64,000 nucleotides of DNA from Solirubrobacterales bacterium (GTDB taxonomy: Bacteria; Actinomycetota; Thermoleophilia; Solirubrobacterales; JACPNS01), in contig JBPPNF010000052.1 of the NCBI GenBank assembly GCA_051306435.1, positions 4,906 through 68,905 on the forward strand. The letters are read 5' to 3'. The notes beneath the pieces were generated by a model. It saw only the letters and a list, made by a program, of their open reading frames with translations, was not told the origin of the DNA and ran no database searches. Below are positions 2,184 to 23,154 of this stretch, one piece after another (the first letter of the stretch is position 1; each line of letters begins with the position of its first letter). A program made the position numbers and the translations under genes.

Positions 2184-5100
2184 GTGAGCGAGCTAGCTCT
2201 GCCAGTACGACAAGTCGAAGACGACGAGCTGTTCAACGCGCTCGGCGGCGCTTCTGCACGGGTTTTCGTCTCCCAGGCATTCACGCCGTTCACGCTCGCA
2301 GTCGCGGCGCAGCGCTTCGCTCCCGGCCGCACCACGCTGATCGTCGCGGCAGACGACACCGCCGCCCGCGACCTTGCCGCGGATCTCTCGGCCTACCTTC
2401 CCGGCAGATCCGTGCGCTCGTATCCCGCGCGCGGAGTGATGTACGAATCGCATCTCGAGCCGCCACCGCACCTCGTCGGACTGCGCATCGCAGCGCTCGA
2501 CTCGCTGACCGCCGAGGACTCTGACGCGATCGTCGTGGTCAGTGCCGGCGCACTGGCCGAGAGAGTTCCCGACCCCGCGCTCAGGCCGCACGGGTTCAAG
2601 CTGGAGCGCGGAGGCGTCGCCGAACTCGACGAGCTGGCACGAGACCTTGTGGCCAGCGGCTACGAAAGGGTCGACCGCGTCGAGGACCGCGGCCAGTTCG
2701 CAGCACGCGGCGACATCCTCGACGTGTTTCCCGCGACCGGCGACAACGCCGTGCGGATCGAGTTCTTCGACATCGAGATTGAGTCGCTGCGCCGCTTCTC
2801 GACATTCACGCAGCGTTCACTCGAGGACGTCGAGTTCGTCGAGATCGAACCGGCGACCGAGCTCGCCGCTGAGTACCGCAAGGACGCGACGCAGGCACTC
2901 GCAGACCAGGAAGAAGGCGACGACTCCCACCCCGCGGACATCGCCGAGTTGCTTCCGATCGACCGCTTCCACGCCCTGCTCGATCTTGCGCCGGACGACG
3001 CCTGGCTTGCCGTCGCCGCCCGTGAGGATGTCGAGTCGGCGCTGACAGAGCTCGGTTCGGATGTCGAGGCGACCTATCAGGACCCGACCGGCCACGGCCT
3101 CTACGTGCCGCCGGAGGAGCTGCTCGCGCAGATCGACCAGGGAGCGGATCTGACGATCAGCAATCTCGTCGCCGAGCCCGGCGGCGCCGAGCTGCGCGCA
3201 GAGCACCCGGGGAGCATGGCGCGCAGCTTCGATGCCGCCGAGATCGAGCTTGAGAAGCTCCAGCGCAGCGGTTACCGCACGATCATCGCCTGGAGCCGCA
3301 AGTCCGAGCTTGAGCGCGCGCAGTACAACCTCGCCCGCGTCAAACCTCGAACGCTTGAAGAGTCAGACAACCAACGCGAATGGACCGGCGTCTTTTTTGC
3401 CCGGCAGACGCTGCGCGAGGGCTTCGTCTCGCCGGCGCTGAAGCTCGCCGTGATCCCCGACCGGTTGCTGCTGAGGGCGGCCGGACGAAGCGCAGCGAAG
3501 ACGAGCGCGCGCGGCCGGATCGCCGGCTTCGCCGATCTGGCGGTCGGTGACATCGTCGTCCACGAGGACCACGGGATCGCAAAGTTCGACGGCTTCGAGA
3601 CCAAGGCCGTCGCCGGCATCACGCGCGACTACCTCACGCTGCTCTACCGCGGCGGCGACAAGGTCTTTCTGCCGGCCGATCAGCTGCACAAGATCAGCCG
3701 CTACTTCGGCGCGGCCGGGCCCGACGGCGTCAACCTCAGCAAGCTCGGCGGCAAGTCATGGGAGAACCTCAAGACCCGAGCCCGCAAGGCGGCGCACGAG
3801 CTCGCAGGCGAGTTGATCAACCTCTACGCCGCGCGCCGGCGCGCGATCGGCTTCGCGTTCAGCCCGGACAACGAGATGCAGCGCCAGTTCGAGGATGCCT
3901 TTCCCTACCAGGAGACGCGCGATCAGCTCGATGCGATCGAGCGCGTCAAGGAGGGCATGGAATCCCCGCAGCCGATGGACATTCTGATCTGCGGCGACGT
4001 CGGCTTCGGCAAGACCGAAGTCGCGCTTCGCGCGGCGTTCAAGGCCGTCCAGGACAGCAAGCAGGTGATGCTGCTCGCGCCGACCACGATCCTCACCCAG
4101 CAGCACTTCGGAACCTTCAGCGAACGCATGCGCGATTTCCCGATCACCGTCGACTTCGTCAGCCGCTTCCGCAGCAGGGCCGAACAGAAGGAGTCACTGA
4201 AGAAGTTCGAGGAGGGCGCGGTCGACATCATGATCGGCACGCACCGGTTGCTCTCGGCCGACGTGAGGCCGAAGGACCTCGGCCTGATCGTCGTCGACGA
4301 GGAGCAGCGTTTCGGAGTCAAGCAGAAGGAGCTCCTGCGCCAGCTGCGCATGCAGACCGATGTCATCAGCCTCTCCGCCACGCCGATCCCGCGCACGCTG
4401 CAGATGTCGATGGCGGGCATGCGCGAGATCGCGGTGATCGCAACGCCACCCGAGGGCCGCCGCCCGGTACGCACGCATGTCGGCGAGTGGGACGAGGAGG
4501 TCGTCAAGCAGGCGCTCCAGCGCGAACACGATCGTGGCGGGCAGTCGCTGTACATGCACGACCTGGTGGGAACGATCGACGAGACGGCCGACCGAATCCG
4601 CGCGCTGATGCCCGAGCTACGGGTGAACGTCGTGCACGGTCAACTCGACGAGCACACGCTCGAAGAGCGGATGATGGGTTTCATCCGCGGCGAGTACGAG
4701 TGCCTGGTCTGCACAACGATCGTCGAATCGGGCCTCGACATCCCCTCGGCCAACACCTTGATCGTCGAGCGGGCCGACAAGCTGGGCCTGTCGCAGGCGT
4801 ACCAGATCCGCGGCCGCGTCGGCCGCGGTCGCGAGCGCGCGTTCGCCTACTTCCTCTACCCGGGCGCGGCGGCGCTCACCCAGGTCGCCGGCAGCCGGCT
4901 CTCGACCCTGGCCGACCACACTGAGCTCGGCAGCGGATTCAAAGTGGCGATGCGCGACCTCGAGATCCGCGGAGCCGGCAACCTGCTCGGCGAGGAGCAG
5001 TCGGGCCACATCGCCGCGGTCGGATTCGATCTGTACGTGTCGATGATCGATGCGGCGGTCGCAGAACTGGAAGGCAAGGGCGACGCGGAGTCGCTCCAGC

Positions 5101-12541: not shown

Positions 12542-13060
12542 CTAGAAGTCGAACTTACGCGGCGGCGCTTCGTCGAACCAGAGCTTGTCGTGCTCTGGCG
12601 TTTCTTCGAAGAAGTCTGGCGTGGCCTCGAGCAGGTCGTCCTCGTCGACGGCTTCGGGCTCTTCGGCCGCCTGCGCTTCTTCCTCACCGAACTCGAACTC
12701 GATCGTGCCGGTGATCTCGCCGGACTTCGGCTCTTCGACGCTTGATGCGACGGCCGTTTCAGTGATCGGCTCTTGGGCGGGGGCGGGCTCTGGTTCGGGT
12801 TCCGGGGCCGGTGCCGGCGCTGGTGCTGGCTCTGGCGCAGGCTCTGGCTCTGGCTCTGGCTCTGGCGCAGGCTCAGCGGCAGCGGCAGGCGCTTCCTCGC
12901 GAATCGGAGGACTCAGGGCGTCTTCGAGCTCGTGTACGACCTCTTCGGGATCGGCGCCGTGCTCCTGTTTCAGGGCCAGGTGAGCCGCGATCGCGTCGGC
13001 GAGCGATCCGCCGGGAACGTCCGCGGAGTCGCCCTCGGGGGTTTCAATGTCATCTGCCAT
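12542..13060 (-). CDS. Acidic hypothetical protein with PE/AP low-complexity linker
   Basis: AIAAHLALKQEHG N-terminus, PEPEP/APAP repeats, LWFDEAPPRKFDF C-terminus. Confidence 0.75.
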   Translation of the reverse strand: MADDIETPEGDSADVPGGSLADAIAAHLALKQEHGADPEEVVHELEDALSPPIREEAPAAAAEPAPEPEPEPEPAPEPAPAPAPAPEPEPEPAPAQEPITETAVASSVEEPKSGEITGTIEFEFGEEEAQAAEEPEAVDEDDLLEATPDFFEETPEHDKLWFDEAPPRKFDF

Positions 13061-13128
13061 GCGGGCCATCTTACGGCGATCGCCGGAAGCTCTGCCCTGA
13101 TGACCGGATAAGCGGGGATGATTCCCAG

Positions 13129-13902
13129 ATGTCGCCGAAAACGTTTCTGCTCGTCCCGACCGCCCTGATTGCGGTCTCTGTATCGATTGAGGCGACGCTG
13201 CTTGCGGGCGTCGCCAGCATCGGCACCACGACCTACCACATGATGCACCTCGCGCTGATGGCGGTCCTGATCGTGGCGCAGTTCGGGGTTTACGCGTACG
13301 CGCGTGAACACGGCGGGCCGGCGCGGCTCGCGCTGCTGTTCGCGATCGGAGCGTCCTGCACCGGGATCGGCGATTTCGTCAACGGCGCAGCAAGCGGCAT
13401 CGAGCCGATCTCACACAAACTCTCGTGGGCGCTGCTTCTGTTCGGCACCGGCTACACGCTCTACACAGTCGCGCTCTGGCTGCACAACGAACCGATTCTC
13501 AGAGGCAGAGCGAGCAACTTCGCACGCTGGCGCTACCTGATCGCCCTACCGATCCTCGCCGTGAACGTCGCCGGCTGGCAGATGCAGGTGGGGCCGAACG
13601 TCGACGGACTCGACCTGCTCGCCTGGGGCTCGTTCATCTTCAACGCGACGATCTACGTCCTGCTGCCGACCTTTGCGATCTGGTTCTTCCACAGCTCCGG
13701 CTGGAGCGTCGGCGGACTGATCGTCCTGATCGGCGCGATCATGATCCAGTACTCCGACCTGATCCTCTTCGACTCGTGGCTCCGCGACGGCAACCCCGAC
13801 GTCCCACCGTTCGAGCTCTACGCAATCAACTGGATCGTCTACTTCAGCGGCCAAGCCCTGATCTCAATCTTCCCAGCGCTGGCAATCCAAGAACGGACCT
13901 GA
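13129..13902 (+). CDS. YhhN/lysoplasmalogenase-like membrane protein
   Basis: Multiple TM helices; GIGD, YSDLI, YFSGQALI motifs; start ATG 13129. Confidence 0.65.
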   Translation: MSPKTFLLVPTALIAVSVSIEATLLAGVASIGTTTYHMMHLALMAVLIVAQFGVYAYAREHGGPARLALLFAIGASCTGIGDFVNGAASGIEPISHKLSWALLLFGTGYTLYTVALWLHNEPILRGRASNFARWRYLIALPILAVNVAGWQMQVGPNVDGLDLLAWGSFIFNATIYVLLPTFAIWFFHSSGWSVGGLIVLIGAIMIQYSDLILFDSWLRDGNPDVPPFELYAINWIVYFSGQALISIFPALAIQERT

Positions 13903-13913
13903 ATCCTCGAACC

Positions 13914-14001
13914 ATCGGCTTAAGCGGCGCATGTTCAAACCACGAACTCGCCGAACGGCTCGCCTGTTCCAATTCTACGCGAGCAAGGATTCTCGATCAA
14001 G
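13914..14001 (+). repeat. att-like direct repeat copy 1 (left end of element A)
   Basis: 88-bp imperfect repeat of 16582-16669, containing GGCGCATGTTCAAACC. Confidence 0.75.
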
Positions 14002-14198
14002 TGGACCCAACGTCTGTCTCCGTGCCGCCGACGAGTCCCGTTGTGCGTCCGGCAGCGGTCCGGCGCGCTGTCAGTCAGGTACTTCTCGACTCGGATCGAC
14101 CGATGTGCGCCGCGAGCGACAGCTCATCGATAACACGAATTTCCAGAGGCCTGTATCGCGCCGGCTCAACCGAGGTGAATCGCGAACTCAGGCGTTAG
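13914..14198 (+). pseudogene. Internally deleted winged-helix ORF remnant
   Basis: RPAAVRRAVSQVLLDSDRPM...RISRGLY matches the 16582-16925 ORF with the middle missing. Confidence 0.6.
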
Positions 14199-15322
14199 TC
14201 GAACTGCCCGAGCCATTTCCGTTCGAACAGCACCTTGCCAAGATGGCCCACTCGCGTCGGCGGGAACAGACGCACTTGTGGGTCGGGCTCGGCGAAGAAG
14301 TCGCCCCTTGCAACGCCGGCCTTGCCACGTCCGATCTCGAGGAAGCATGATCCGTGACCCGCGAATCTGGCGCTGGTCTCGTGACCACGTGCGATGGCGA
14401 TCAAGTTGTCGGCAACGACGCGGGCTTGTTCGTTCGCGAAGACTCCTGCCTTCGGGAGCGGCTTTCCGTTGGCCAACGGAATAGCCGTCACGTCGCCGAT
14501 CGCGTGAACGTGATCCGCCGCGCGCAGGGTATGCCGGTCAACCGGAATCCAGCCGTTCGGCCCGGCCAGCTCCGAGTCGCGCACAAACGCCGGCGCTCGG
14601 TGTGGCGGTATCGCGATCAACAGGTCATATCGTTCCACGTCGTCCGCGAAGCGCAGCACCTGTGCGTTTTCATCGACTTCGCCAAGCGTCCGATCAGGGC
14701 GAAACGCGATGCCGCGTTTCTCCAGCATCGAGGCAACGCGATCACCCACTGCCGGTCCGGCCACCGGCATCGGTTGCGGTTCGACGGTGTGAACTCCCAC
14801 CTGCGATTCGACACCGCGCCTGCGCAAGTACGCCTCGATCAGAAACGCCGCTTCATACGGTGCAGCCGGGCATTTGTACGGCATCGACGGAACCACAATC
14901 TGAACGCGTCCGCCGTTGAAATTGCTCAGCGTTGCTCCTAAGTCCGCGGCTGCGTCCTTCGTGTAGAACGATGACGCATTTCCGAGTCCTGGCACGTCTG
15001 CAAAATTCAGCTCCGCACCAGGGGCCACGACCAGTTCGTCGTAGCTCACCGTTGAGCTGGTCGTCGTCACATTTTGCGCCCCAAGATCTATCCCCGTGAC
15101 ACATTCGCTCACCAGCTCGACGCCCCAGTTCGAGATCGAGTCGATCGGCCGCGAGACCTGTTCGACGTTCCGCGCGCCGTTCAGCAGCCAGAGAAACGAC
15201 GGTGCGAAGTCGTGGTTCACTGCCGGGTCGATCACGACGATGTGAATGTCCTTGGCACGTTCGGACAGTCGCTTGGCGCACGCCACGCCGCCGACTCCAG
15301 CACCGATCACGACCACCTTCAT
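14195..15322 (-). CDS. SQR/FCC-like FAD-dependent sulfide oxidoreductase
   Basis: VVVIGAGVGG, YKCPAAPYE, HAIGDV, PKAG, CFLE. Confidence 0.88.
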   Translation of the reverse strand: MKVVVIGAGVGGVACAKRLSERAKDIHIVVIDPAVNHDFAPSFLWLLNGARNVEQVSRPIDSISNWGVELVSECVTGIDLGAQNVTTTSSTVSYDELVVAPGAELNFADVPGLGNASSFYTKDAAADLGATLSNFNGGRVQIVVPSMPYKCPAAPYEAAFLIEAYLRRRGVESQVGVHTVEPQPMPVAGPAVGDRVASMLEKRGIAFRPDRTLGEVDENAQVLRFADDVERYDLLIAIPPHRAPAFVRDSELAGPNGWIPVDRHTLRAADHVHAIGDVTAIPLANGKPLPKAGVFANEQARVVADNLIAIARGHETSARFAGHGSCFLEIGRGKAGVARGDFFAEPDPQVRLFPPTRVGHLGKVLFERKWLGQFD

Positions 15323-16002
15323 GCTGACTTCTCCGATCGTTCGCCCGGTGCGATTTCGATCGGCCGTCCCTCGGCGACCCATTCTGCAAACCCGATGTCA
15401 AGCCGCTCGGTAGCAAGACCGAAACGCTTCATCGCGCGCACGGCGCTCGGCGCGAGCACGCAGTACGAGTCGCGGCAGTAAGCGACGACACTCGAATTTC
15501 GTGGCAGTTCTGAGATTCGGTCCGAGAGATCTTCGAGTGGCAGCGAGATCGCTCCGGGAATGTGCCCCGCCTCGAACTCGTCGCGGGGCCGAACGTCGAT
15601 CAACACGACCTCGTCGTCTCGCATCCGGGCGAACAGGCGGTCGCTGCCGATCTGTTCGAGGTCTTGTGTCTCAGTGAGAAAGTCGCGGACGAGACTCTGC
15701 GCCTCCAGGCTGCGCGCCTCGGCGAGTTGTCGCAGTGAGACCAGCGCCGAGAACACGGACTCGTCCGCCAGCCGGTAGTGGATTCGCTGTCCGTCGCGTC
15801 GCGTGTCGACCAGCCGGGCTTGCCGCAAGACCTTCAGTTGCGACGAAACCGTGGTCAGTGGTGCCGAAAGCCTGGTCCGGATTTCGTCGACGCTGCGCTC
15901 TCCTTGAACCAGCAACTCAAGAATGCGCACGCGCAACGGATTGGCGAATGCGTGCCCGAGCTTGGCGATTTCGGTGTCGAGATCGACCGACTGCATGACC
16001 AT
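15319..16002 (-). CDS. ArsR/SmtB regulator fused to rhodanese domain
   Basis: ANPLRVRILELL...VSSQLKVLRQARLV; DVRPRDEFEAGHIPGA, YCRDSYC. Confidence 0.92.
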   Translation of the reverse strand: MVMQSVDLDTEIAKLGHAFANPLRVRILELLVQGERSVDEIRTRLSAPLTTVSSQLKVLRQARLVDTRRDGQRIHYRLADESVFSALVSLRQLAEARSLEAQSLVRDFLTETQDLEQIGSDRLFARMRDDEVVLIDVRPRDEFEAGHIPGAISLPLEDLSDRISELPRNSSVVAYCRDSYCVLAPSAVRAMKRFGLATERLDIGFAEWVAEGRPIEIAPGERSEKSA

Positions 16003-16003
16003 C

Positions 16004-16360
16004 TCAGAACACCAAAACCTTGTCAGCCCAGAGCGACCACTCGGTGAGCCCATCGAGGTTCGACCGCGAAGCGCCTTCGACGAGCGGCACGTCGGCGAAG
16101 CCGCGGGCGTCCAGGCAGGTGCCGCAGACACCGACCTCAGCCCCTTTTCGCGTGATCGAGCCGACCATGCGCTCGATGTTGTAGTAGCCGTCGGGTGTCT
16201 GCTGGCCGGCGACTGCGCAACCGGCGGCGTCGCCGAACAAGAACATCCGAATCTCGACGCCGTCCTGCTTGATCAGCGAGCGCGCGAGCCGGAGGCCGTT
16301 GTATGAGCGTTCCGTCCCGTACGGCGGATCGTTGAGAATGACGAGGAAATGATTAGCCAT
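16004..16360 (-). CDS. DsrE/YchN family sulfur-relay protein
   Basis: DPPYGTERSYNGLRLA, FLFGDAAGCA, GQQTPDGYYN, CGTCLDARG. Confidence 0.92.
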   Translation of the reverse strand: MANHFLVILNDPPYGTERSYNGLRLARSLIKQDGVEIRMFLFGDAAGCAVAGQQTPDGYYNIERMVGSITRKGAEVGVCGTCLDARGFADVPLVEGASRSNLDGLTEWSLWADKVLVF

Positions 16361-16377
16361 GCGACCATAATACTATA

Positions 16378-16395
16378 TTACGAGAAACATCGTAA
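16378..16395. promoter_or_regulatory. Candidate ArsR operator
   Basis: TTACGA-N6-TCGTAA inverted repeat next to the AT-rich -10 of the dsrE promoter. Confidence 0.55.
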
Positions 16396-16526
16396 GATTA
16401 CCGAGACACACAACGACTCGCCCGCCCTGATGGGACCGTGTGGAGATACGTAGACGTCGAGATCCAGATCGAGATTCGCGGTGAGTACCGGCACGTCGCC
16501 GAGGGCGGATCTGGCTGATCACTGCC

Positions 16527-16551
16527 GGCGGTTTGAACTCTGCAAATTGGT
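16527..16551 (+). repeat. att-like arm (right end of element A)
   Basis: GGCGGTTTGAACTctgcaaattGGT resembles GGCGGTTTGAACTtcaacaaaatGGT abutting the tRNA at 18323-18348. Confidence 0.7.
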
Positions 16552-16581
16552 CGCGTGAAGAACCTCTGTAAATCCGCAGGA

Positions 16582-16669
16582 GTGGGCTTGACCGGCGCAT
16601 GTTCAAACCGACTTATGGCAGACCGCGTCGCCTGCTCTAATTCTACGCGAGTAAAGATTCTCGATCAAG
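16582..16669 (+). repeat. att-like direct repeat copy 2 (left end of element B)
   Basis: GTGGGCTTGACCGG-CGCAT-GTTCAAACC aligns to the tRNA antisense GTGGAGCTAGCCGG-ATTCGAACC. Confidence 0.75.
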
Positions 16670-16925
16670 CCCTCAATGCCGACGATGTGCAACCTCGGCT
16701 CATCGAAGTCGCACGACCGTTGGCAGTGCGAGAAGCCGTGAAACAGGTGCTGGAAGATTCCCAGCGCCCATTGCGTTACGTTGCGGTTGTCGAGCTTGTT
16801 AGCCGGAGGCTGGGCTGCAACGTCAGTCGATCAACGGTCAGGTCGGCACTCAGTGATCTCGCGGCGTCTCCGACATCTTCAGTGATTCGCAAGCAGCGTG
16901 GCCTTTACGAGACGCGGACTACCTT
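16582..16925 (+). CDS. Winged-helix-like ORF starting at the att site, 3' end at the IS fragment junction
   Basis: AVREAVKQVLEDSQRPLRYVAVVELV...VSRSTVRSALSDL...RKQRGLY. Confidence 0.55.
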
Positions 16926-17760
16926 TATCTCAGCGCCTTGCCGCCGTCGAGCACAAACAGCATGCCTTGCTGCGGGTCAAGCCCGCGATCGACGAGGTCG
17001 GTCAGCAACGCAGTGGAGACCGTCGCGTTCTCGGTTGATCCCTCCCACAAACCCAGTGGCAGCTTGACGCCTTCGGTTGTGACGCCCAGGGCGACCACGA
17101 CCGTGCGGCCTTTCAGGTCGAGTCCGTCGATCATCAATGCGGCCAGCCGCACGTCGCCAAGGTCGCGGCCCATCAGCTGCTTCATGGCGTCTCTCGTGCG
17201 GACGACAAACTCACGCGAGACGGCTGACTTGGACGTTGAGACGGCAGCTTCTTCGACTGCCTCGCCGACCGCCTCGCCGGCACCCTTGAAGCGGCGCGTT
17301 GAGATGCCCGCGAGCATCCGGTCAAGGATTCCTCGGCCGAGCGGGTCGCGACCTGCGAACTGCTCGTAGGTAGCAACTTGCGCCTCGCCGCCGCCCTTCC
17401 TGCGGATCCGAGGCCGGCGGATTCTCAGGCGCCTGGCACCGAGGGTCACCTGGCCGTTCTCGTGGCCATGGCGGTAAACCGTGCGCTGCGGATCGTGGGC
17501 TCCCTTGGGGCCGGCAAGCCGCGTGACCTCTTCGTCCATCAGCTCCTGCATGACGGCCATGCCGGTGAGGGCCAACTGGAGACGATCGGGCGCTTCGTTC
17601 GTCGCGCCGATCGGCGCGACGACAGCTTCGTTGTGTAGGTTCTGCATTGTTTGGTTCTCCTGTATTTTCGTTGTGGAAAATTGCCTCGTCACGCTCCCAA
17701 AAGGAGCGGACGGGGCTGGAGAACCGGCGGGTGAAGTTCTACGGAGAGTGGGGCAATCTC
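16925..17760 (-). mobile_element. Truncated IS256-family element (transposase fragment 16925-17647)
   Basis: YRHGH, RPRIR, LAGISTRR, SAVSR, LMIDG, VLDGGKAL then stop; catalytic E region missing; IR-like end near 17733-17760. Confidence 0.85.
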
Positions 17761-18409
17761 GCGGATCGAGCACCTCTTCGGCCGTGTCCAGCTTGAGCCA
17801 GCGATTCGCGAGCGGATCAAGGCAGCAGTCTTGGCCTACTTGGACGAGCGGGGCCAACACGCTGCGCCGCGACTTGCCAAGGCCGAAGCTGAACTGACGA
17901 AATTGAAGAACCAGGAGAAGAAGCTGCTCGACGCGCATTACGCGGATTCAATTTCCAAAGATTTGTTCGTCGAAGAGCAAGCGCGGATTCGCCGCGAACG
18001 CATCGCGGCCGACAAGCTGATCGAACGATTGAGCGCCGACGAGACGGTCGTGCAGGAAAAGGTGATGACGGCTCTGGCCATGACCGATCGAATTCAGACC
18101 GCGTACATCGCGGGAGACCCCAGCGCCAAGCGACTATTCAACCAGGCGTTCTTTAGATGGATTGCGATCGGCCACGAAGATGTCAGCGACTTCCAGGTCG
18201 CCGAGCCTTTCGATCAGTTCGTGGAACTGGTTGCGGTTGATGTGATCGAGGAGGAGTCTTTGGTTCAGACGAGCGCCGTGTCAGCACTCAAAAGCAAAAC
18301 CGCCGACCTCTTTTCAAAGGTCGGCGGTTTGAACTTCAACAAAATGGTGGAGCTAGCCGGATTCGAACCGGCGGCCTTTCGATTGCGAACCGAACGCTCT
18401 ACCAACTGA
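17761..18409 (+). pseudogene. C-terminal fragment of a large serine recombinase, reading antisense through the tRNA
   Basis: Coiled coil KKLLDAHYADSISKDLFVEEQARI, KRLFNQAFF, tail MVELAGFEP; catalytic N-terminus lost at the IS. Confidence 0.7.
18297..18330 (-). terminator. Terminator downstream of tRNA-Ala
   Basis: 13-bp stem AAACCGCCGACCT/AGGTCGGCGGTTT with T-rich tail on the minus strand. Confidence 0.8.
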
Positions 18410-18420
18410 GCTATAGCCCC
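18345..18420 (-). tRNA. tRNA-Ala(CGC)
   Basis: GGGGCTATAGCTCAGTTGGTAGAGC...TTCGCAA...GGTTCGAATCC...CTCCACCA; G3:U70 pair; encoded CCA. Confidence 0.97.
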
Positions 18421-18469
18421 GTGCCGTGAGAATGGTATCGGCGCAGCGATCGCGCGAGACAGCTCGCGG

Positions 18470-18997
18470 CTAGAGCGTCTCTCGCTCGCCGACGCGCAGC
18501 TGCTTGGGAGTCGTGAAGTTGGCGAGATCAACGGTGTCGGTGGCCAGCTCTGACCAGTCGCCGTCGAATTCGAACTCCGCAAGAGCGGCGGTGGGAAACT
18601 TTGCCGCCACGCGGGTGAGGCCTTCGCTCTCTCGGGCGATCTCGACAGAGAGGTCGTGAATCGAAGGGTTGTGCCCGACCAGCAGCACTGCCTTGCGCTT
18701 CTTCGGGACGCCGCGCAGCACATCGAGCAGGTCCTTCCTGGATGCCCGGTAGATCGCGTCCTCGAACTCAGTCTTTGCATCGCGGGGCAACGCGCGGGCG
18801 ACCGCCATGAGCGTCTCGCGCGCCCGGCGCGCCCCGGAGCAGTAGATGAAGTCCGGCTCGATCCCGCGATCGAGAATCAGCTCTGCGATCAGCTCGCAGT
18901 CGTTCCAGCCACGCTCGGTCAATCCACGCTCGTAGTCGAGCTGCCCGGCCAGCTCCCAGCTGGACTTCGCGTGGCGCAGAAGGTACAGATGCCTCAT
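18470..18997 (-). CDS. SixA-like histidine phosphatase
   Basis: LLRHAKSSW, CSGARRARET, LLVGHNP, FPTAALA. Confidence 0.92.
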   Translation of the reverse strand: MRHLYLLRHAKSSWELAGQLDYERGLTERGWNDCELIAELILDRGIEPDFIYCSGARRARETLMAVARALPRDAKTEFEDAIYRASRKDLLDVLRGVPKKRKAVLLVGHNPSIHDLSVEIARESEGLTRVAAKFPTAALAEFEFDGDWSELATDTVDLANFTTPKQLRVGERETL

Positions 18998-19004
18998 CAG
19001 CCGG

Positions 19005-19892
19005 CTATCGCTCGGGTCGCGTCGGCCCGACGTGGTCGAAGATTGCTGCGACGTCATCCTTGCCACGGCCTGCTTCGAGCGCCGCGTTGAAGTGGTCGTT
19101 CGTACCCTCGGCAAGCGGGAGCTGAAGGCCCGCCTCGCGCGCGGCGCCGACGATCAGGCGCGTGTCCTTGGTCCCGTGTTCAAGCGGAAAGTTCGGTTCG
19201 AACTCTCCGTCGAGCATCATCCTGCCCTTGACCTGCGCGTAGGCCGAACCGACGGGAGCGCCGTCGATCGCATCGAGAAACGCTTCGGGATCGAGGCTCA
19301 GCGCGGAGCAGAGATGCACGGCCTCGGCGATCATCGCCGTCTGGGTGAGCACCCAGTGGTTGGTCACGAGCTTCATGCGCGAGCCGTTGCCGGCCTCGCC
19401 GAGCCATACCGTCCTGGCGCCGACGGCGTCGAGCACCGGGGCGGCAAACTCAGCGGCGGCCTTGTCGCCGGAGGCGAGCATCACGAGCTGACCGGCCTCG
19501 GCGGGATTCTTGGTGCCCGATACCGGAACGTCCACAAATGCGACTCCGGCTTCGGCGGCCAGGGCGATCAACGCATCTGTTCCTTCGACCCCGATCGTCG
19601 CGCACTGCAGCCACGCCGCGCCCTCGGCGAGCCCGCCGAGCAGCGGCTCCATCACCTCGCGCGTGACCTGCGCGTCCGAAAGCACGCTGATCACCACATC
19701 GCGGTCACGCACGGCCGCAGCCGCATCTTCAAAAACTTCTGCGCCGTCTTCGGCCAGCGGCCTCGCCTTCTCGGGACTGCGATTCCAGACAGCGGTGCTG
19801 ATCCCCGCCTTGACGGTGTTGCGCGCCATCGCCGCACCGATGATGCCGGCGCCGAGGATCGCGACTGACGTTGCCCTGCGTTCTTCGCTCAT
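19005..19892 (-). CDS. NAD(P)-dependent beta-hydroxyacid dehydrogenase (3-hydroxyisobutyrate DH family)
   Basis: GAGIIGAAMA, WNRS, DVPVSGT, MKLVTN, KDTRL. Confidence 0.9.
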   Translation of the reverse strand: MSEERRATSVAILGAGIIGAAMARNTVKAGISTAVWNRSPEKARPLAEDGAEVFEDAAAAVRDRDVVISVLSDAQVTREVMEPLLGGLAEGAAWLQCATIGVEGTDALIALAAEAGVAFVDVPVSGTKNPAEAGQLVMLASGDKAAAEFAAPVLDAVGARTVWLGEAGNGSRMKLVTNHWVLTQTAMIAEAVHLCSALSLDPEAFLDAIDGAPVGSAYAQVKGRMMLDGEFEPNFPLEHGTKDTRLIVGAAREAGLQLPLAEGTNDHFNAALEAGRGKDDVAAIFDHVGPTRPER

Positions 19893-20090
19893 CGCGCCGA
19901 CGATATCGCCGACGCCGCGCGCGACGCTCACATGCTCAGAACCAGTTCCTCCAGGCGGTCGTAGGCCTCGGTCAGGCCGCCTTCACTGCCGGAGCCGACC
20001 GTTCACGGCCAGCCACGCGCCTGACGAGGTCGAGCGTCGGTGTTGATTCAACCGTTTGGTTGACTGATCCACGATCGGTATGTTCCGTGC

Positions 20091-21114: not shown

Positions 21115-21579
21115 GTGATGGCCAGCAGTTGGAGAATCTCTGAGCGTCAGCGCCAACTCGAGGACATTGCGCTCGACGTCGCAGGCCTCGCCCCGGAGGC
21201 GACCTCGGTCGCCACGATCGCTGCAAAGCACGGACTGTTCGGCAGGAAGTCGGATGAGGAATTCGTGATGCTCGCGCTCGCCCCGCCGTTTCTGCACATT
21301 CAGCCGGTCGACGAGAAGACTCTCGCCATCACCGCTCCCCCGCTCACGCTCACAAAGGACGATCTGAGCCACGTCGCTGTGCACCCTCACATCGCGGAGA
21401 TCCGCGGCCGAGAAGAGCGAATCACCGTCGAAGTCGAGTTGCGGTTTCGGGACGGCAGACGCTTCGAACTGCTCGTCCCGAGCGGGGCGATCTATGGCGA
21501 CGAAGCGACGCCGTCGATACGCGCCAGGACGACAGCGATCTGCGACGCCATCGTCGACTGGTTGAAGTCTGCCGGCTAG
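21115..21579 (+). CDS. Hypothetical protein (paralog of 20091-20567)
   Basis: Motif similarity to the upstream paralog. Confidence 0.7.
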   Translation: MMASSWRISERQRQLEDIALDVAGLAPEATSVATIAAKHGLFGRKSDEEFVMLALAPPFLHIQPVDEKTLAITAPPLTLTKDDLSHVAVHPHIAEIRGREERITVEVELRFRDGRRFELLVPSGAIYGDEATPSIRARTTAICDAIVDWLKSAG

Positions 21580-21742
21580 AGGTCATGGCCAAAACCTCGG
21601 GAGGGTTCTGCTGAGTCTGAAACCAAGCAGGTCGTGGCGGGCGACCGCAGCAATAGCGGCGCTATTGCGAGGATCGCACTCCGCGAGATGCGCAGCGTTT
21701 CAGGCCAGCAGAATGCCGCGGGGTTTTGGCCATGACCTCTAG
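21576..21742. mobile_element. MITE-like element copy 2
   Basis: Same length as copy 1, two substitutions, CTAG at both ends. Confidence 0.85.
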
Positions 21743-23154
21743 CGCTTGTCGCGAATGATCACGCTGGCCCCGCGCTTGGGGATCATCGTGACGTTTCTGT
21801 GCTGCACATGCTCGGCCTCCGGGCGGTCCGGCTCGATCTCCAGGCGCGCCGCCATGCGCTCAAGCACCACGCGCATCTCGGCCATCGCGAGCGATGCGCC
21901 AAGACAACGACGCGTGCCGCCGCCGAAGGGAATCCACTCGTAGGTACCCGGCTTGTGGCCGACCCAGCGCTGGGGTTTGAACTCCCAGGGCTCGGGGTAG
22001 AGGTCTTCGCGGTGGTGCACCAGAAGGATGCTGATGGTGATCGGGGTGCCGGCCTCGACGCCGTACTCGCCGAGCTGCCACGGTGCCATCACGCGGCGTC
22101 CGACCATCGGGATCACCGGACGCGAGCGCATCGTCTCCTGGATCACGTATTCGATCTGGTCGGCCTTGTCGGCGCGATCGGTGCGGACGGCGTCGTAGAG
22201 CTCGTTGTAGGCGTCGGGGGAGCGCACGAGGCGCTCCCACGCCCAGGCCAGTGAGTTGGCGGTGGTCTCGTGGCCGGCGAGCAGCAAGGTGATCAGCTCG
22301 TCGCGCAGCTCGCGGTCGGTCATCGCCTCGCCGTCCTCGTCGCGGGCGCGCATCAGCATCGACATGATGTCCTTGCGCTCCTCGAGGTTCGGGTCCTTGC
22401 GGCGCTCGGCGATCACTTCGTAGACCGGTTTGTCGAGCTGGGCGAGGGCGTACTTCTGGATGCCGACCGCATCTTCACGGCCGACGTTGACGTACTCACT
22501 CACCTTCGCGATCGGCGTGGTTGAAAGCTCAGCCAGCTTGCGCGTGACTGCCGCGAGGCGGTACTCGGAGGTGCCCTTCTCCGGGCGGCCCACAACGCCG
22601 AAGATTCCCGACATGATCACGTCGAGCGTGACGTCCTGCATCTTCGGGGCGATCTCCATGACCTCGCCGACGGGCCAGTGGTCAATTGACTTGTCGATCG
22701 CATCCTCGATCATCGAGATGTACTGCGCGATCGAGTCGCCGTGAAAGGAAGGGAGCAGCAACTTGCGCTGCCGCAGGTGACGCGCGCCGCGCGCAGTGAG
22801 CACAGAGTCCTTGCCGACGATCGGTCGCAGCGGCGACTCGGTGGTGAGCGTCGGGGCGACGTCCGGCGATGCGGTGAAGAGCGATCTGGCGTGATCGGGG
22901 TGACCAGTGGTCACGGGGTGCCCGGGGATGATTCCGTGGAAGCGGAAGACCTCGCCGAAATCCTTTCGGCCCTTGAGCACGAACTCGGCCTGACGTTGGC
23001 CGAAGCGCAGAACCTGGTTCCAGCGCGGGAGATCGAACTCGGGCACGCGCTTGAGCGTGGCGAGTTCTGCTTCAGTGATCTGACCCGCTGGCGAAGCCGG
23101 GTAGGAGCCGATCAGCGGCTGCTCTGTCCTCGTGATTGTTTCTGGGGGAACCAT
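21739..23154 (-). CDS. Cytochrome P450
   Basis: AGHETT, ETMR (ExxR), PFGGGTRRCLG heme motif. Confidence 0.97.
   Translation of the reverse strand: MVPPETITRTEQPLIGSYPASPAGQITEAELATLKRVPEFDLPRWNQVLRFGQRQAEFVLKGRKDFGEVFRFHGIIPGHPVTTGHPDHARSLFTASPDVAPTLTTESPLRPIVGKDSVLTARGARHLRQRKLLLPSFHGDSIAQYISMIEDAIDKSIDHWPVGEVMEIAPKMQDVTLDVIMSGIFGVVGRPEKGTSEYRLAAVTRKLAELSTTPIAKVSEYVNVGREDAVGIQKYALAQLDKPVYEVIAERRKDPNLEERKDIMSMLMRARDEDGEAMTDRELRDELITLLLAGHETTANSLAWAWERLVRSPDAYNELYDAVRTDRADKADQIEYVIQETMRSRPVIPMVGRRVMAPWQLGEYGVEAGTPITISILLVHHREDLYPEPWEFKPQRWVGHKPGTYEWIPFGGGTRRCLGASLAMAEMRVVLERMAARLEIEPDRPEAEHVQHRNVTMIPKRGASVIIRDKR

Follow-up and report, generated by a model that had tools for sequence, protein, structure and literature searches.

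How did two short blocks of DNA come to lie in a row beside a tRNA-Ala gene, and what kind of enzyme would have placed them there? The locus raising this question lies in a 64,000-nt stretch of a Solirubrobacterales genome (assembly GCA_051306435.1, contig JBPPNF010000052.1, forward-strand positions 4,906 to 68,905), which was analysed over its whole length and is referred to here as the window. An initial annotation had described two units of ~2.6 and ~1.8 kb in tandem next to the tRNA, bounded by motifs resembling the attachment-site arms of a large serine recombinase (LSR), and our analysis recovered both the arrangement and the sizes. We read the region as two tandem, decayed copies of one family of LSR-moved integrative elements that inserts at the 3' ends of tRNA and transfer-messenger RNA (tmRNA) genes in Actinomycetota, mostly Solirubrobacterales, and give this reading a probability of roughly 0.7.

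The boundaries of the units are marked by a 9-mer, GTTCAAACC, which was found five times in the window against an expectation of 0.27; none of 100 shuffled sequences reached five. Two copies are exact on the plus strand (13933–13941 and 16601–16609) and two are exact in inverse orientation (16530–16538 and 18326–18334), at the right ends where the inverse motif had been noted. The fifth copy, at 21974, lies within a P450 gene. The other four delimit unit A (13916–16553, 2638 bp) and unit B (16584–18350, 1767 bp), the right end of B falling inside tRNA-Ala(CGC). Left ends had initially been placed at 13914 and 16582; the 9-mers themselves start at 13933 and 16601, but both earlier positions lie within 2 nt of the element ends as mapped here (cores 13916–17 and 16584–85). 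The left arms are part of an 85-nt direct repeat (13917–14001 and 16585–16669, 80 % identity), beyond which homologous open frames continue in A and B with 39 % amino acid identity (E 7e-14 and 1e-12, within-window comparison). The right arms could be aligned over 27 nt, from CGGCGG through TGGT, with a score that none of 2000 shuffles matched. G+C content is 62 % in unit A and 60.6 % in unit B, against 65.2 % for the window.

The relics of coding sequence in the units connect them to a recombinase clade. A fragment in unit B (17735–18340) matched proteins of ~580 aa, P0001 at 75 % and P0002 at 72 % identity, both of which have Resolvase, Recombinase and Zn_ribbon_recom domains (separately confirmed for P0001). 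The window LSR corresponds to residues ~367–582 only, its catalytic, recombinase and zinc-ribbon domains being gone, whereas full-length homologues have all three, and the unit is thus the remnant of a member of an LSR-element family. In the integrated state its frame extends into tRNA antisense as far as 18409. The C-termini of all eight aligned homologues (8/8) are translated tRNA antisense as well (..MVE.xG.EP..), indicating that the gene regularly has its 3' end against a tRNA in this clade. Scanning genome contigs with a profile of the LSR alignment returned 323 relatives, and the best 80 loci, mostly from metagenome-assembled genomes of Solirubrobacterales, were fetched. A minus-strand tRNA was called at the LSR 3' end in 65/80 loci, one of which (L056) was really a tmRNA; after correction the LSR adjoins a tRNA in 64 loci and a tmRNA in three, or 67/80. 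At least a dozen tRNA species are targeted among the fetched loci. The tmRNA genes, whose tag peptide is ADSHEYALAA, adjoin the LSR at ~11667 in L039, ~11628 in L041 and ~11619 in L056. Neither 50,697 phage records (best 24–29 % identity) nor the PLSDB plasmids yielded a close relative, and a synteny search of the 80 loci for an empty site, utilizing the window flank proteins, gave one weak match (L016) and no informative locus.

Comparison of these loci showed that the right arm is an inverted copy of the tRNA T-loop, in agreement with the earlier proposal that LSR attachment-site arms mimic the T-arm. In 57/65 loci exactly 10 nt separate the end of a GGTT-type 9-mer (GGTTnnnnn) from the TGG encoding CCA, and the same spacing holds in four further loci of the 65 where the tRNA call starts 1 nt further in. 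This identification rests on the arm consensus GGTTCGAA(C/T) of 51 loci and the window, which matches the T-arm consensus GGTTCGA(G/A)(T/C); the 51 loci had been filtered for a TGG start and for GGTT at –19, so that GGTT is fixed by the filter, and in the unfiltered 65-locus table ~57/65 carry it. The codon after GGT specifies different residues (S, L, Y or W), and the constraint therefore acts on the DNA.

Left ends were located by searching with a profile of the left-end open frame, which encodes a winged-helix (WH) domain. In L037, L026, L015 and L021 it detected this frame on the LSR strand and upstream of that gene, giving element lengths of ~10.2, ~9.6, ~9.4 and ~3.6 kb, respectively. 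In every mapped element a T followed by the same two bases is common to attL and attR, these two bases being GG in unit B, L026 and L021, CG in unit A and L037, and AC in L015. In unit B the core GG (18349–18350) coincides with tRNA positions 72-71. More generally, we infer that the shared T represents the discriminator A73 and the two core bases positions 72-71. The 9-mer is separated from the core by 14 nt on the LSR side (13 in A) and by 15 nt on the other side, and the T-loop 9-mer by 10 nt, which corresponds to half-site positions 16–24 in the P arm, 17–25 in the P' arm and 12–20 in the tRNA. The zinc-ribbon-domain motif of the Listeria LI integrase occupies positions 16–24 in attP and 11–19 in attB (PMC3783163). 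The offset between arms and T-loop matches this published shift of ~5 bp, and by analogy the 9-mer is probably bound by the zinc-ribbon domain.

Two independent observations support the position of the crossover. The CG core of L037 forms the centre of an inner dyad, CTTCAAG/CTTGAAG, and in L044 (11621–11700) a natural contiguous site, GGTTCGATT-31 nt-AATCGAACC (14+2+15), is present at the LSR 3' end. A scan for contiguous P-core-P' arrangements yielded four sites (eight rows, both strands counted), only one of which, that of L044, lies at an LSR end. In L044 a second P arm and core also follow this site after 8 nt, forming a ~60-nt empty att-bounded shell; no tRNA was called in this fetched locus. 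Both window units have inverted arms flanking a 2-bp core shared by attL and attR, and no repeat of a tRNA fragment; L037, L026, L015 and L021 are laid out alike.

This geometry would place the attachment site of the element within its own recombinase gene. When the two ends were joined in silico, the LSR and WH frames were in phase over the core in 5/5 elements (unit B, L037, L026, L015 and L021), and the residues GL(S/T)GACSN, common to the WH frames of A and B, are kept right up to the core. Proteins with the two parts naturally fused were also found. P0152, itself a member of this LSR clade (35 % identity over 356 residues, against P0001 residues 220–567, E 3e-63), continues at ..MVG into a WH domain, and P0047 (L044) and P0198 (L002) are LSR-WH fusions from other LSR lineages. 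Frames in phase through the reconstructed attP, taken with the natural fused proteins, suggest that attP lies inside the recombinase reading frame and that integration splits the LSR gene, a situation apparently new for serine integrases. No serine integrase with a gene spanning attP, or with a HARE-HTH domain, was found in the literature, although this is weak evidence as most subscription journals lay outside the search. In L002 an LSR of the present clade, associated with tRNA-Glu, has the fusion of another lineage (3–1889) 8 kb upstream of it; this fusion could be either a true fusion gene or a tandem junction.

The WH profile matched 1289 clusters at E≤1e-3, of which 357 reached E≤1e-10; most are proteins of 110–180 aa. 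Amongst the top 150 matches the N-terminal motif was present in 56, and 31/56 start with M-x-motif, where x is encoded by a G-starting codon in 30/31; this is expected if the junction codon is N-T-core1 and the next codon starts with core2. The structural model of the domain (pLDDT 88.3) has three helices and a wing after a long helix. Its best match in the PDB was the Rok DNA-binding domain at E 1.4e-3, with no match at E≤0.001. The domain in L044 scored below cut-off for both WH_Rok (PF23159; 20.6 bits, cut-off 27.6) and HARE-HTH (PF05066; 19.9 bits, cut-off 25.9), the window copies had no Pfam match, and P0199 has a precomputed PF05066 annotation. Searching longer proteins with the profile gave one match among 8000 scored candidates and did not help in counting fusions. 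The domain also occurs outside recombinase contexts, P0054 (1034 aa) carrying ten tandem copies of it.

In the mechanism that we propose, an LSR dimer would read the tRNA T-loop, a GGTTCGAAT-type 9-mer, as the outer half-site motif of attB, and would read inverted copies of the 9-mer, 4–5 bp further out, in both arms of attP. Strand exchange would occur at a 2-bp core at tRNA positions 72-71, and the integrated element would give the tRNA its A73, CCA and terminator. In the free circular form the LSR frame would run through attP into a WH domain of ~110 residues encoded at the opposite end of the element. Upon integration the LSR would lose this domain and gain ~19 codons of tRNA antisense, whilst the WH frame would be left at attL, where the junction would often create an ATG or GTG in front of it.

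Applied to the window (Table 1), this mechanism would have inserted unit B in tRNA-Ala with core GG, the canonical site. The last four nucleotides of the tRNA (A73 and CCA) and its terminator come from unit B, and a hairpin within the region encoding the LSR tail is predicted to be the terminator-like site that the element supplies. An IS256-family insertion and a deletion would later have removed the N-terminal two thirds of the LSR along with any cargo; the 3' end of the WH frame enters the IS fragment, the transposase part of which is 60 % identical to L067 9121–9759. L067 shares the layout of unit B, with an IS256-family transposase gene directly upstream of a 5'-truncated LSR gene; the two loci are unrelated and their truncation points differ. 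Unit A would have inserted 30 nt away in the tRNA trailer, a secondary site with CG at both ends, and would have retained its cargo whilst losing all of its LSR gene but the last ~27 nt. The left flank of unit B has AGT before the core, as do the native trailers of L037, L038 and L040, and the 30-nt spacer between the units probably represents what survives of the native tRNA-Ala trailer. Similarity was at chance level between the spacer and the tRNA (612/2000 shuffles as good), between the left flank of unit A and the spacer (805/2000), and between that flank and the tRNA (595/2000).

Unit A carries three genes forming a minus-strand sulfide/persulfide operon, and these sulfur genes were present in 0/80 of the fetched relative loci. 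Its WH frame is open up to the core, lacks a start codon and has 28 residues of the fold deleted. The initial annotation had seen a trace of the LSR 3' end (ADL...GGLN) in this unit. The last 27 nt have statistical support and are, judging by the alignment with B, the last relic of its LSR gene, but the upstream ADL matches at only 6/9 bases by eye. As the units stand, neither A nor B is likely to be self-mobile.

Table 1. Positions of the features of units A and B and of the adjoining tRNA gene in the window
Feature	Position	Strand	Details
attL of unit A	13907..13941	+	Chromosomal flank ending in T, core CG 13916-13917, 15-nt spacer 13918-13932, GTTCAAACC 13933-13941
WH open-frame relic, unit A	13917..14198	+	Profile E 4.6e-11, profile positions 2-63 and 91-108 only
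FAD-dependent sulfide:quinone-reductase-like oxidoreductase, unit A cargo	14195..15322	-	Pyr_redox_2 6e-24, FCSD_central 1.2e-8
ArsR-type helix-turn-helix fused to rhodanese, unit A cargo	15319..16002	-	HTH_5 1.9e-8, Rhodanese 1.1e-15
DsrE/DsrF-like protein, unit A cargo	16004..16360	-	DsrE 1.3e-20
attR-type right arm of unit A	16526..16553	+	GGTTTGAAC 16530-16538, 13-nt spacer, TGGT 16548-16551, core CG 16552-16553
Spacer between units A and B	16554..16583		30 nt, ends AGT before core
attL of unit B	16584..16609	+	Core GG 16584-16585, 15-nt spacer 16586-16600, GTTCAAACC 16601-16609
WH open frame, unit B	16582..16929	+	E 1.7e-23; GTG codon across junction, ATG at 16615
IS256/Mutator-family transposase gene fragment, unit B	16925..17647	-	240 aa, profile positions 31-235 of 379
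C-terminal ~200 codons of unit B LSR	17735..18350	+	No Pfam match; 77 % identical to P0001 residues 367-582 (tblastn)
Intrinsic-terminator-like hairpin	18297..18330	-	15 pairs then T-rich tail, on tRNA strand; inside LSR tail coding region
attR of unit B	18326..18369	+	GGTTTGAAC 18326-18334, 14-nt spacer, core GG 18349-18350, 10-nt spacer, T-loop 9-mer ATTCGAACC 18361-18369
tRNA-Ala (anticodon CGC)	18345..18420	-	Rfam match

Other explanations for the same anatomy were considered. The initial annotation had interpreted the locus as integron-like, with a platform at tRNA-Ala gathering minimal cargo cassettes that have LSR arms but no integrase and are mobilised in trans by an LSR encoded elsewhere. 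Both units retain both arms, unit A has a coherent three-gene cargo, and tandem junctions exist elsewhere in the family (the LSR element of L044 followed by its ~60-nt P'/P shell), but we nevertheless consider this improbable. Relics of its own LSR gene persist in each unit, namely the 3' end in the case of A and the C-terminal 200 codons in that of B, together with a WH frame at each left end, which makes both units decayed autonomous elements rather than cassettes lacking an integrase; the interior of B, gutted by the IS256 fragment, holds IS sequence instead of cargo. The units are 30 nt apart with no shared att junction and differ in core (CG versus GG). There is no intact LSR gene anywhere in the window, the sole LSR gene being the fragment in B, no tyrosine integrase, attI or attC-like site was found among the ten open reading frames of 13129–19931, and mobilisation in trans, although possible, is shown by nothing in the window. 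A duplication in place followed by divergence, or arms that are the terminal inverted repeats of a non-autonomous transposon resembling a miniature inverted-repeat transposable element (MITE), could account for the 85-nt direct repeats and the inverted 9-mers at both ends of each unit, and an IS256-family fragment does lie inside B. This seems scarcely credible given that the arms are 80–100 % identical and the WH frames only 39 %, a disparity indicative of selection on the arms and not of recent duplication. Moreover, the cores agree within each unit and differ between them, no target-site duplication was seen for the window units, and the right arm keeps a fixed distance from the tRNA end in 57/65 unrelated loci.

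In a classical tRNA island the crossover, made by a tyrosine integrase or by an LSR, would fall within the tRNA (anticodon or T loop), the whole 3' half of the tRNA would travel with the element and the 9-mers would be incidental. Such an island is in our estimation highly unlikely here, although some relatives do resemble one. In L038 (11570–12566) a 56-nt tRNA-Pro 3' fragment comes directly after the LSR element, then a ~0.9-kb cassette (PIN and a small open reading frame) and then a full tRNA without encoded CCA; in L040 (11990–13018) the order is the same, with a 42-nt tRNA-Lys 3' fragment and a ~0.9-kb cassette encoding a Phd antitoxin and PIN. Only a tRNA 3' fragment follows the LSR in L029, L032, L062 and L067, where no complete tRNA was called nearby; these loci may be tandem arrays extending past the fetched flank, or rearrangements. 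The toxin-antitoxin cassettes of L038 and L040 have neither an integrase nor GGTT arms; an island of a different type apparently entered these tRNA genes later, at a point further 5', which would explain the fragments. No displaced copy of the 3' part of tRNA-Ala exists in the window, where the longest extra match is 15 nt and far away, and the mapped left ends have only 3–7 nt of tRNA identity. The lack of a longer copy fits a 2-bp crossover and argues against one deep in the tRNA.

Several results weigh against two LSR-moved elements as we describe them. The position of the crossover follows from sequence logic alone. The block shared by the two element ends is only 3–7 nt long, and three loci contain a second in-phase candidate core (L037 1375, L015 2270 and L021 7783); the choice between candidates was not blind, since we required a T directly before the core and a TCNAAC-type 9-mer 15 nt after it. 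Left ends were located in only 4/65 loci. A blind search for inverted arms (core-N14-inverse 9-mer, ≤1 mismatch) returned two matches against 3.6 in spacing controls, and a blind left-end search of the 65 loci with the inverse of a 24-nt right arm reached 12–17/24, with runners-up scoring as high, which amounts to noise. The P-arm 9-mer did not co-vary with its cognate T-arm (2006/5000 permutations reached the observed identity). Measured from the core, the two arms lie further out than the T-loop by 4 and 5 nt, respectively (14 and 15 versus 10 nt), instead of by exactly 5 on both sides; the outward shift noted initially thus agrees with the attP/attB difference in PMC3783163 without being 5 nt throughout. 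As to the split gene, the five in-phase elements are relatives and not independent trials, only one of the top 150 WH matches is an LSR-WH fusion of this clade, and that lone fusion could have arisen at a tandem junction and not in a free element. As to unit A, a T-loop-like motif is missing from its target where one would be expected, its closeness to unit B (30 nt) has no explanation, and its CG core is palindromic, so the core would not fix the orientation of the unit.

Further features were noted around the units. A promoter-like site on the minus strand, TTGATC-17 nt-TAGAAT, is present in the best-conserved part of both left-end repeats (13972–14000 and 16640–16668). Both copies face outward over the att core; that of unit B would read toward the DsrE operon of unit A, and in a free element the site would read over attP into the terminator hairpin. 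An Rfam scan of the whole window matched only the tRNA. Between two convergent genes lies a 25-nt inverted repeat (21575–21599 and 21719–21743, 96 % complementary) around 119 nt, without an Rfam match, which could represent either a regulatory palindrome or a small insert of MITE type. Three 30-nt tandem units (12768–12857) belong to a gene (12542–13069, minus strand) for an acidic Pro/Glu/Ala-rich protein and are coding low-complexity sequence.

For the window itself the consequences of our reading are modest, namely two dead elements, one of which would have imported an operon for handling sulfide and persulfide. A wider proposal, to which we give somewhat less than even odds, is that these enzymes form a large, uncharacterised clade of serine integrases in soil Actinomycetota that uses the T-loop as the zinc-ribbon motif of attB, crosses over at positions 72-71 and has its gene across attP. 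Splitting of the gene would then be a built-in switch, in which the full-length protein integrates and the truncated protein, with or without the free domain, is either locked in or primed for excision. Such a switch, if it exists, would also explain the pile-up of remnants like A and B at tRNA genes, and an effect of the detached WH domain on direction would be a new way of encoding directionality.

Amongst known systems, the clade resembles the phage-type LSRs (Listeria LI/A118, phiC31, Bxb1), with which it shares the Resolvase/Recombinase/Zn-ribbon architecture (seen in the homologues), short att sites and a 2-bp core. LSRs recombine attP with attB only and require a directionality factor for excision; no such factor was identified here. 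Like the LI integrase the clade has a 9-bp outer motif at attP half-site positions 16–24 that is shifted inward in attB, by ~5 bp in LI (PMC3783163). Unlike these enzymes, it inserts in many different tRNA genes and in tmRNA, at their acceptor/T-arm end, utilizing the universal T-loop as attB motif, and it would have its attP within the recombinase reading frame and an extra C-terminal WH domain. An attP inside an integrase gene is known from the SSV-type archaeal tyrosine integrases, where integration, often in a tRNA gene, splits the gene (PMC7253208). The position of attP in frame, as seen by in-silico joining and in database open reading frames, is a feature common to both. In the SSV type, however, the enzyme is a tyrosine recombinase and is destroyed by the split, whereas here it is a serine recombinase that would lose only a C-terminal accessory domain after the coiled-coil region. 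The integration-dependent immunity of mycobacteriophages also places attP inside a gene, with integration altering the C-terminus of the product; in that case the split gene encodes the repressor and the integrase is a tyrosine enzyme.

As arrangements, the two units invite comparison with tycheposons and integrons. Prochlorococcus tycheposons form tandem stacks at tRNA genes in which newer elements push older ones outward and decayed remnants persist, and 27/937 carry an LSR (bioRxiv 10.1101/2020.12.28.424599). In the same account each tycheposon unit has partial copies of a tRNA, ~40 nt long, on its flanks, whilst the window units have LSR-type arms and no tRNA duplication, and the second unit does not lie in a regenerated site. 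Partial tRNAs, absent from the window, are present in L038 and L040 beside the other cassettes. The likeness to integrons goes no further than cargo units in a row at one locus. Integrons employ the tyrosine recombinase IntI, attI, a Pc promoter and attC sites, whereas the unit ends here are LSR arms and each unit would once have had its own recombinase. PMC12884075 states of attB sites no more than that they are typically in tRNA or tmRNA genes.

Serine integrases are valued as tools for their short sites and their independence from host factors, and tRNA genes are regarded as the territory of tyrosine integrases. A clade hundreds strong, recognising the T-loop and cleaving the acceptor end, would represent a family of natural integrases with related, predictable targets in every genome.

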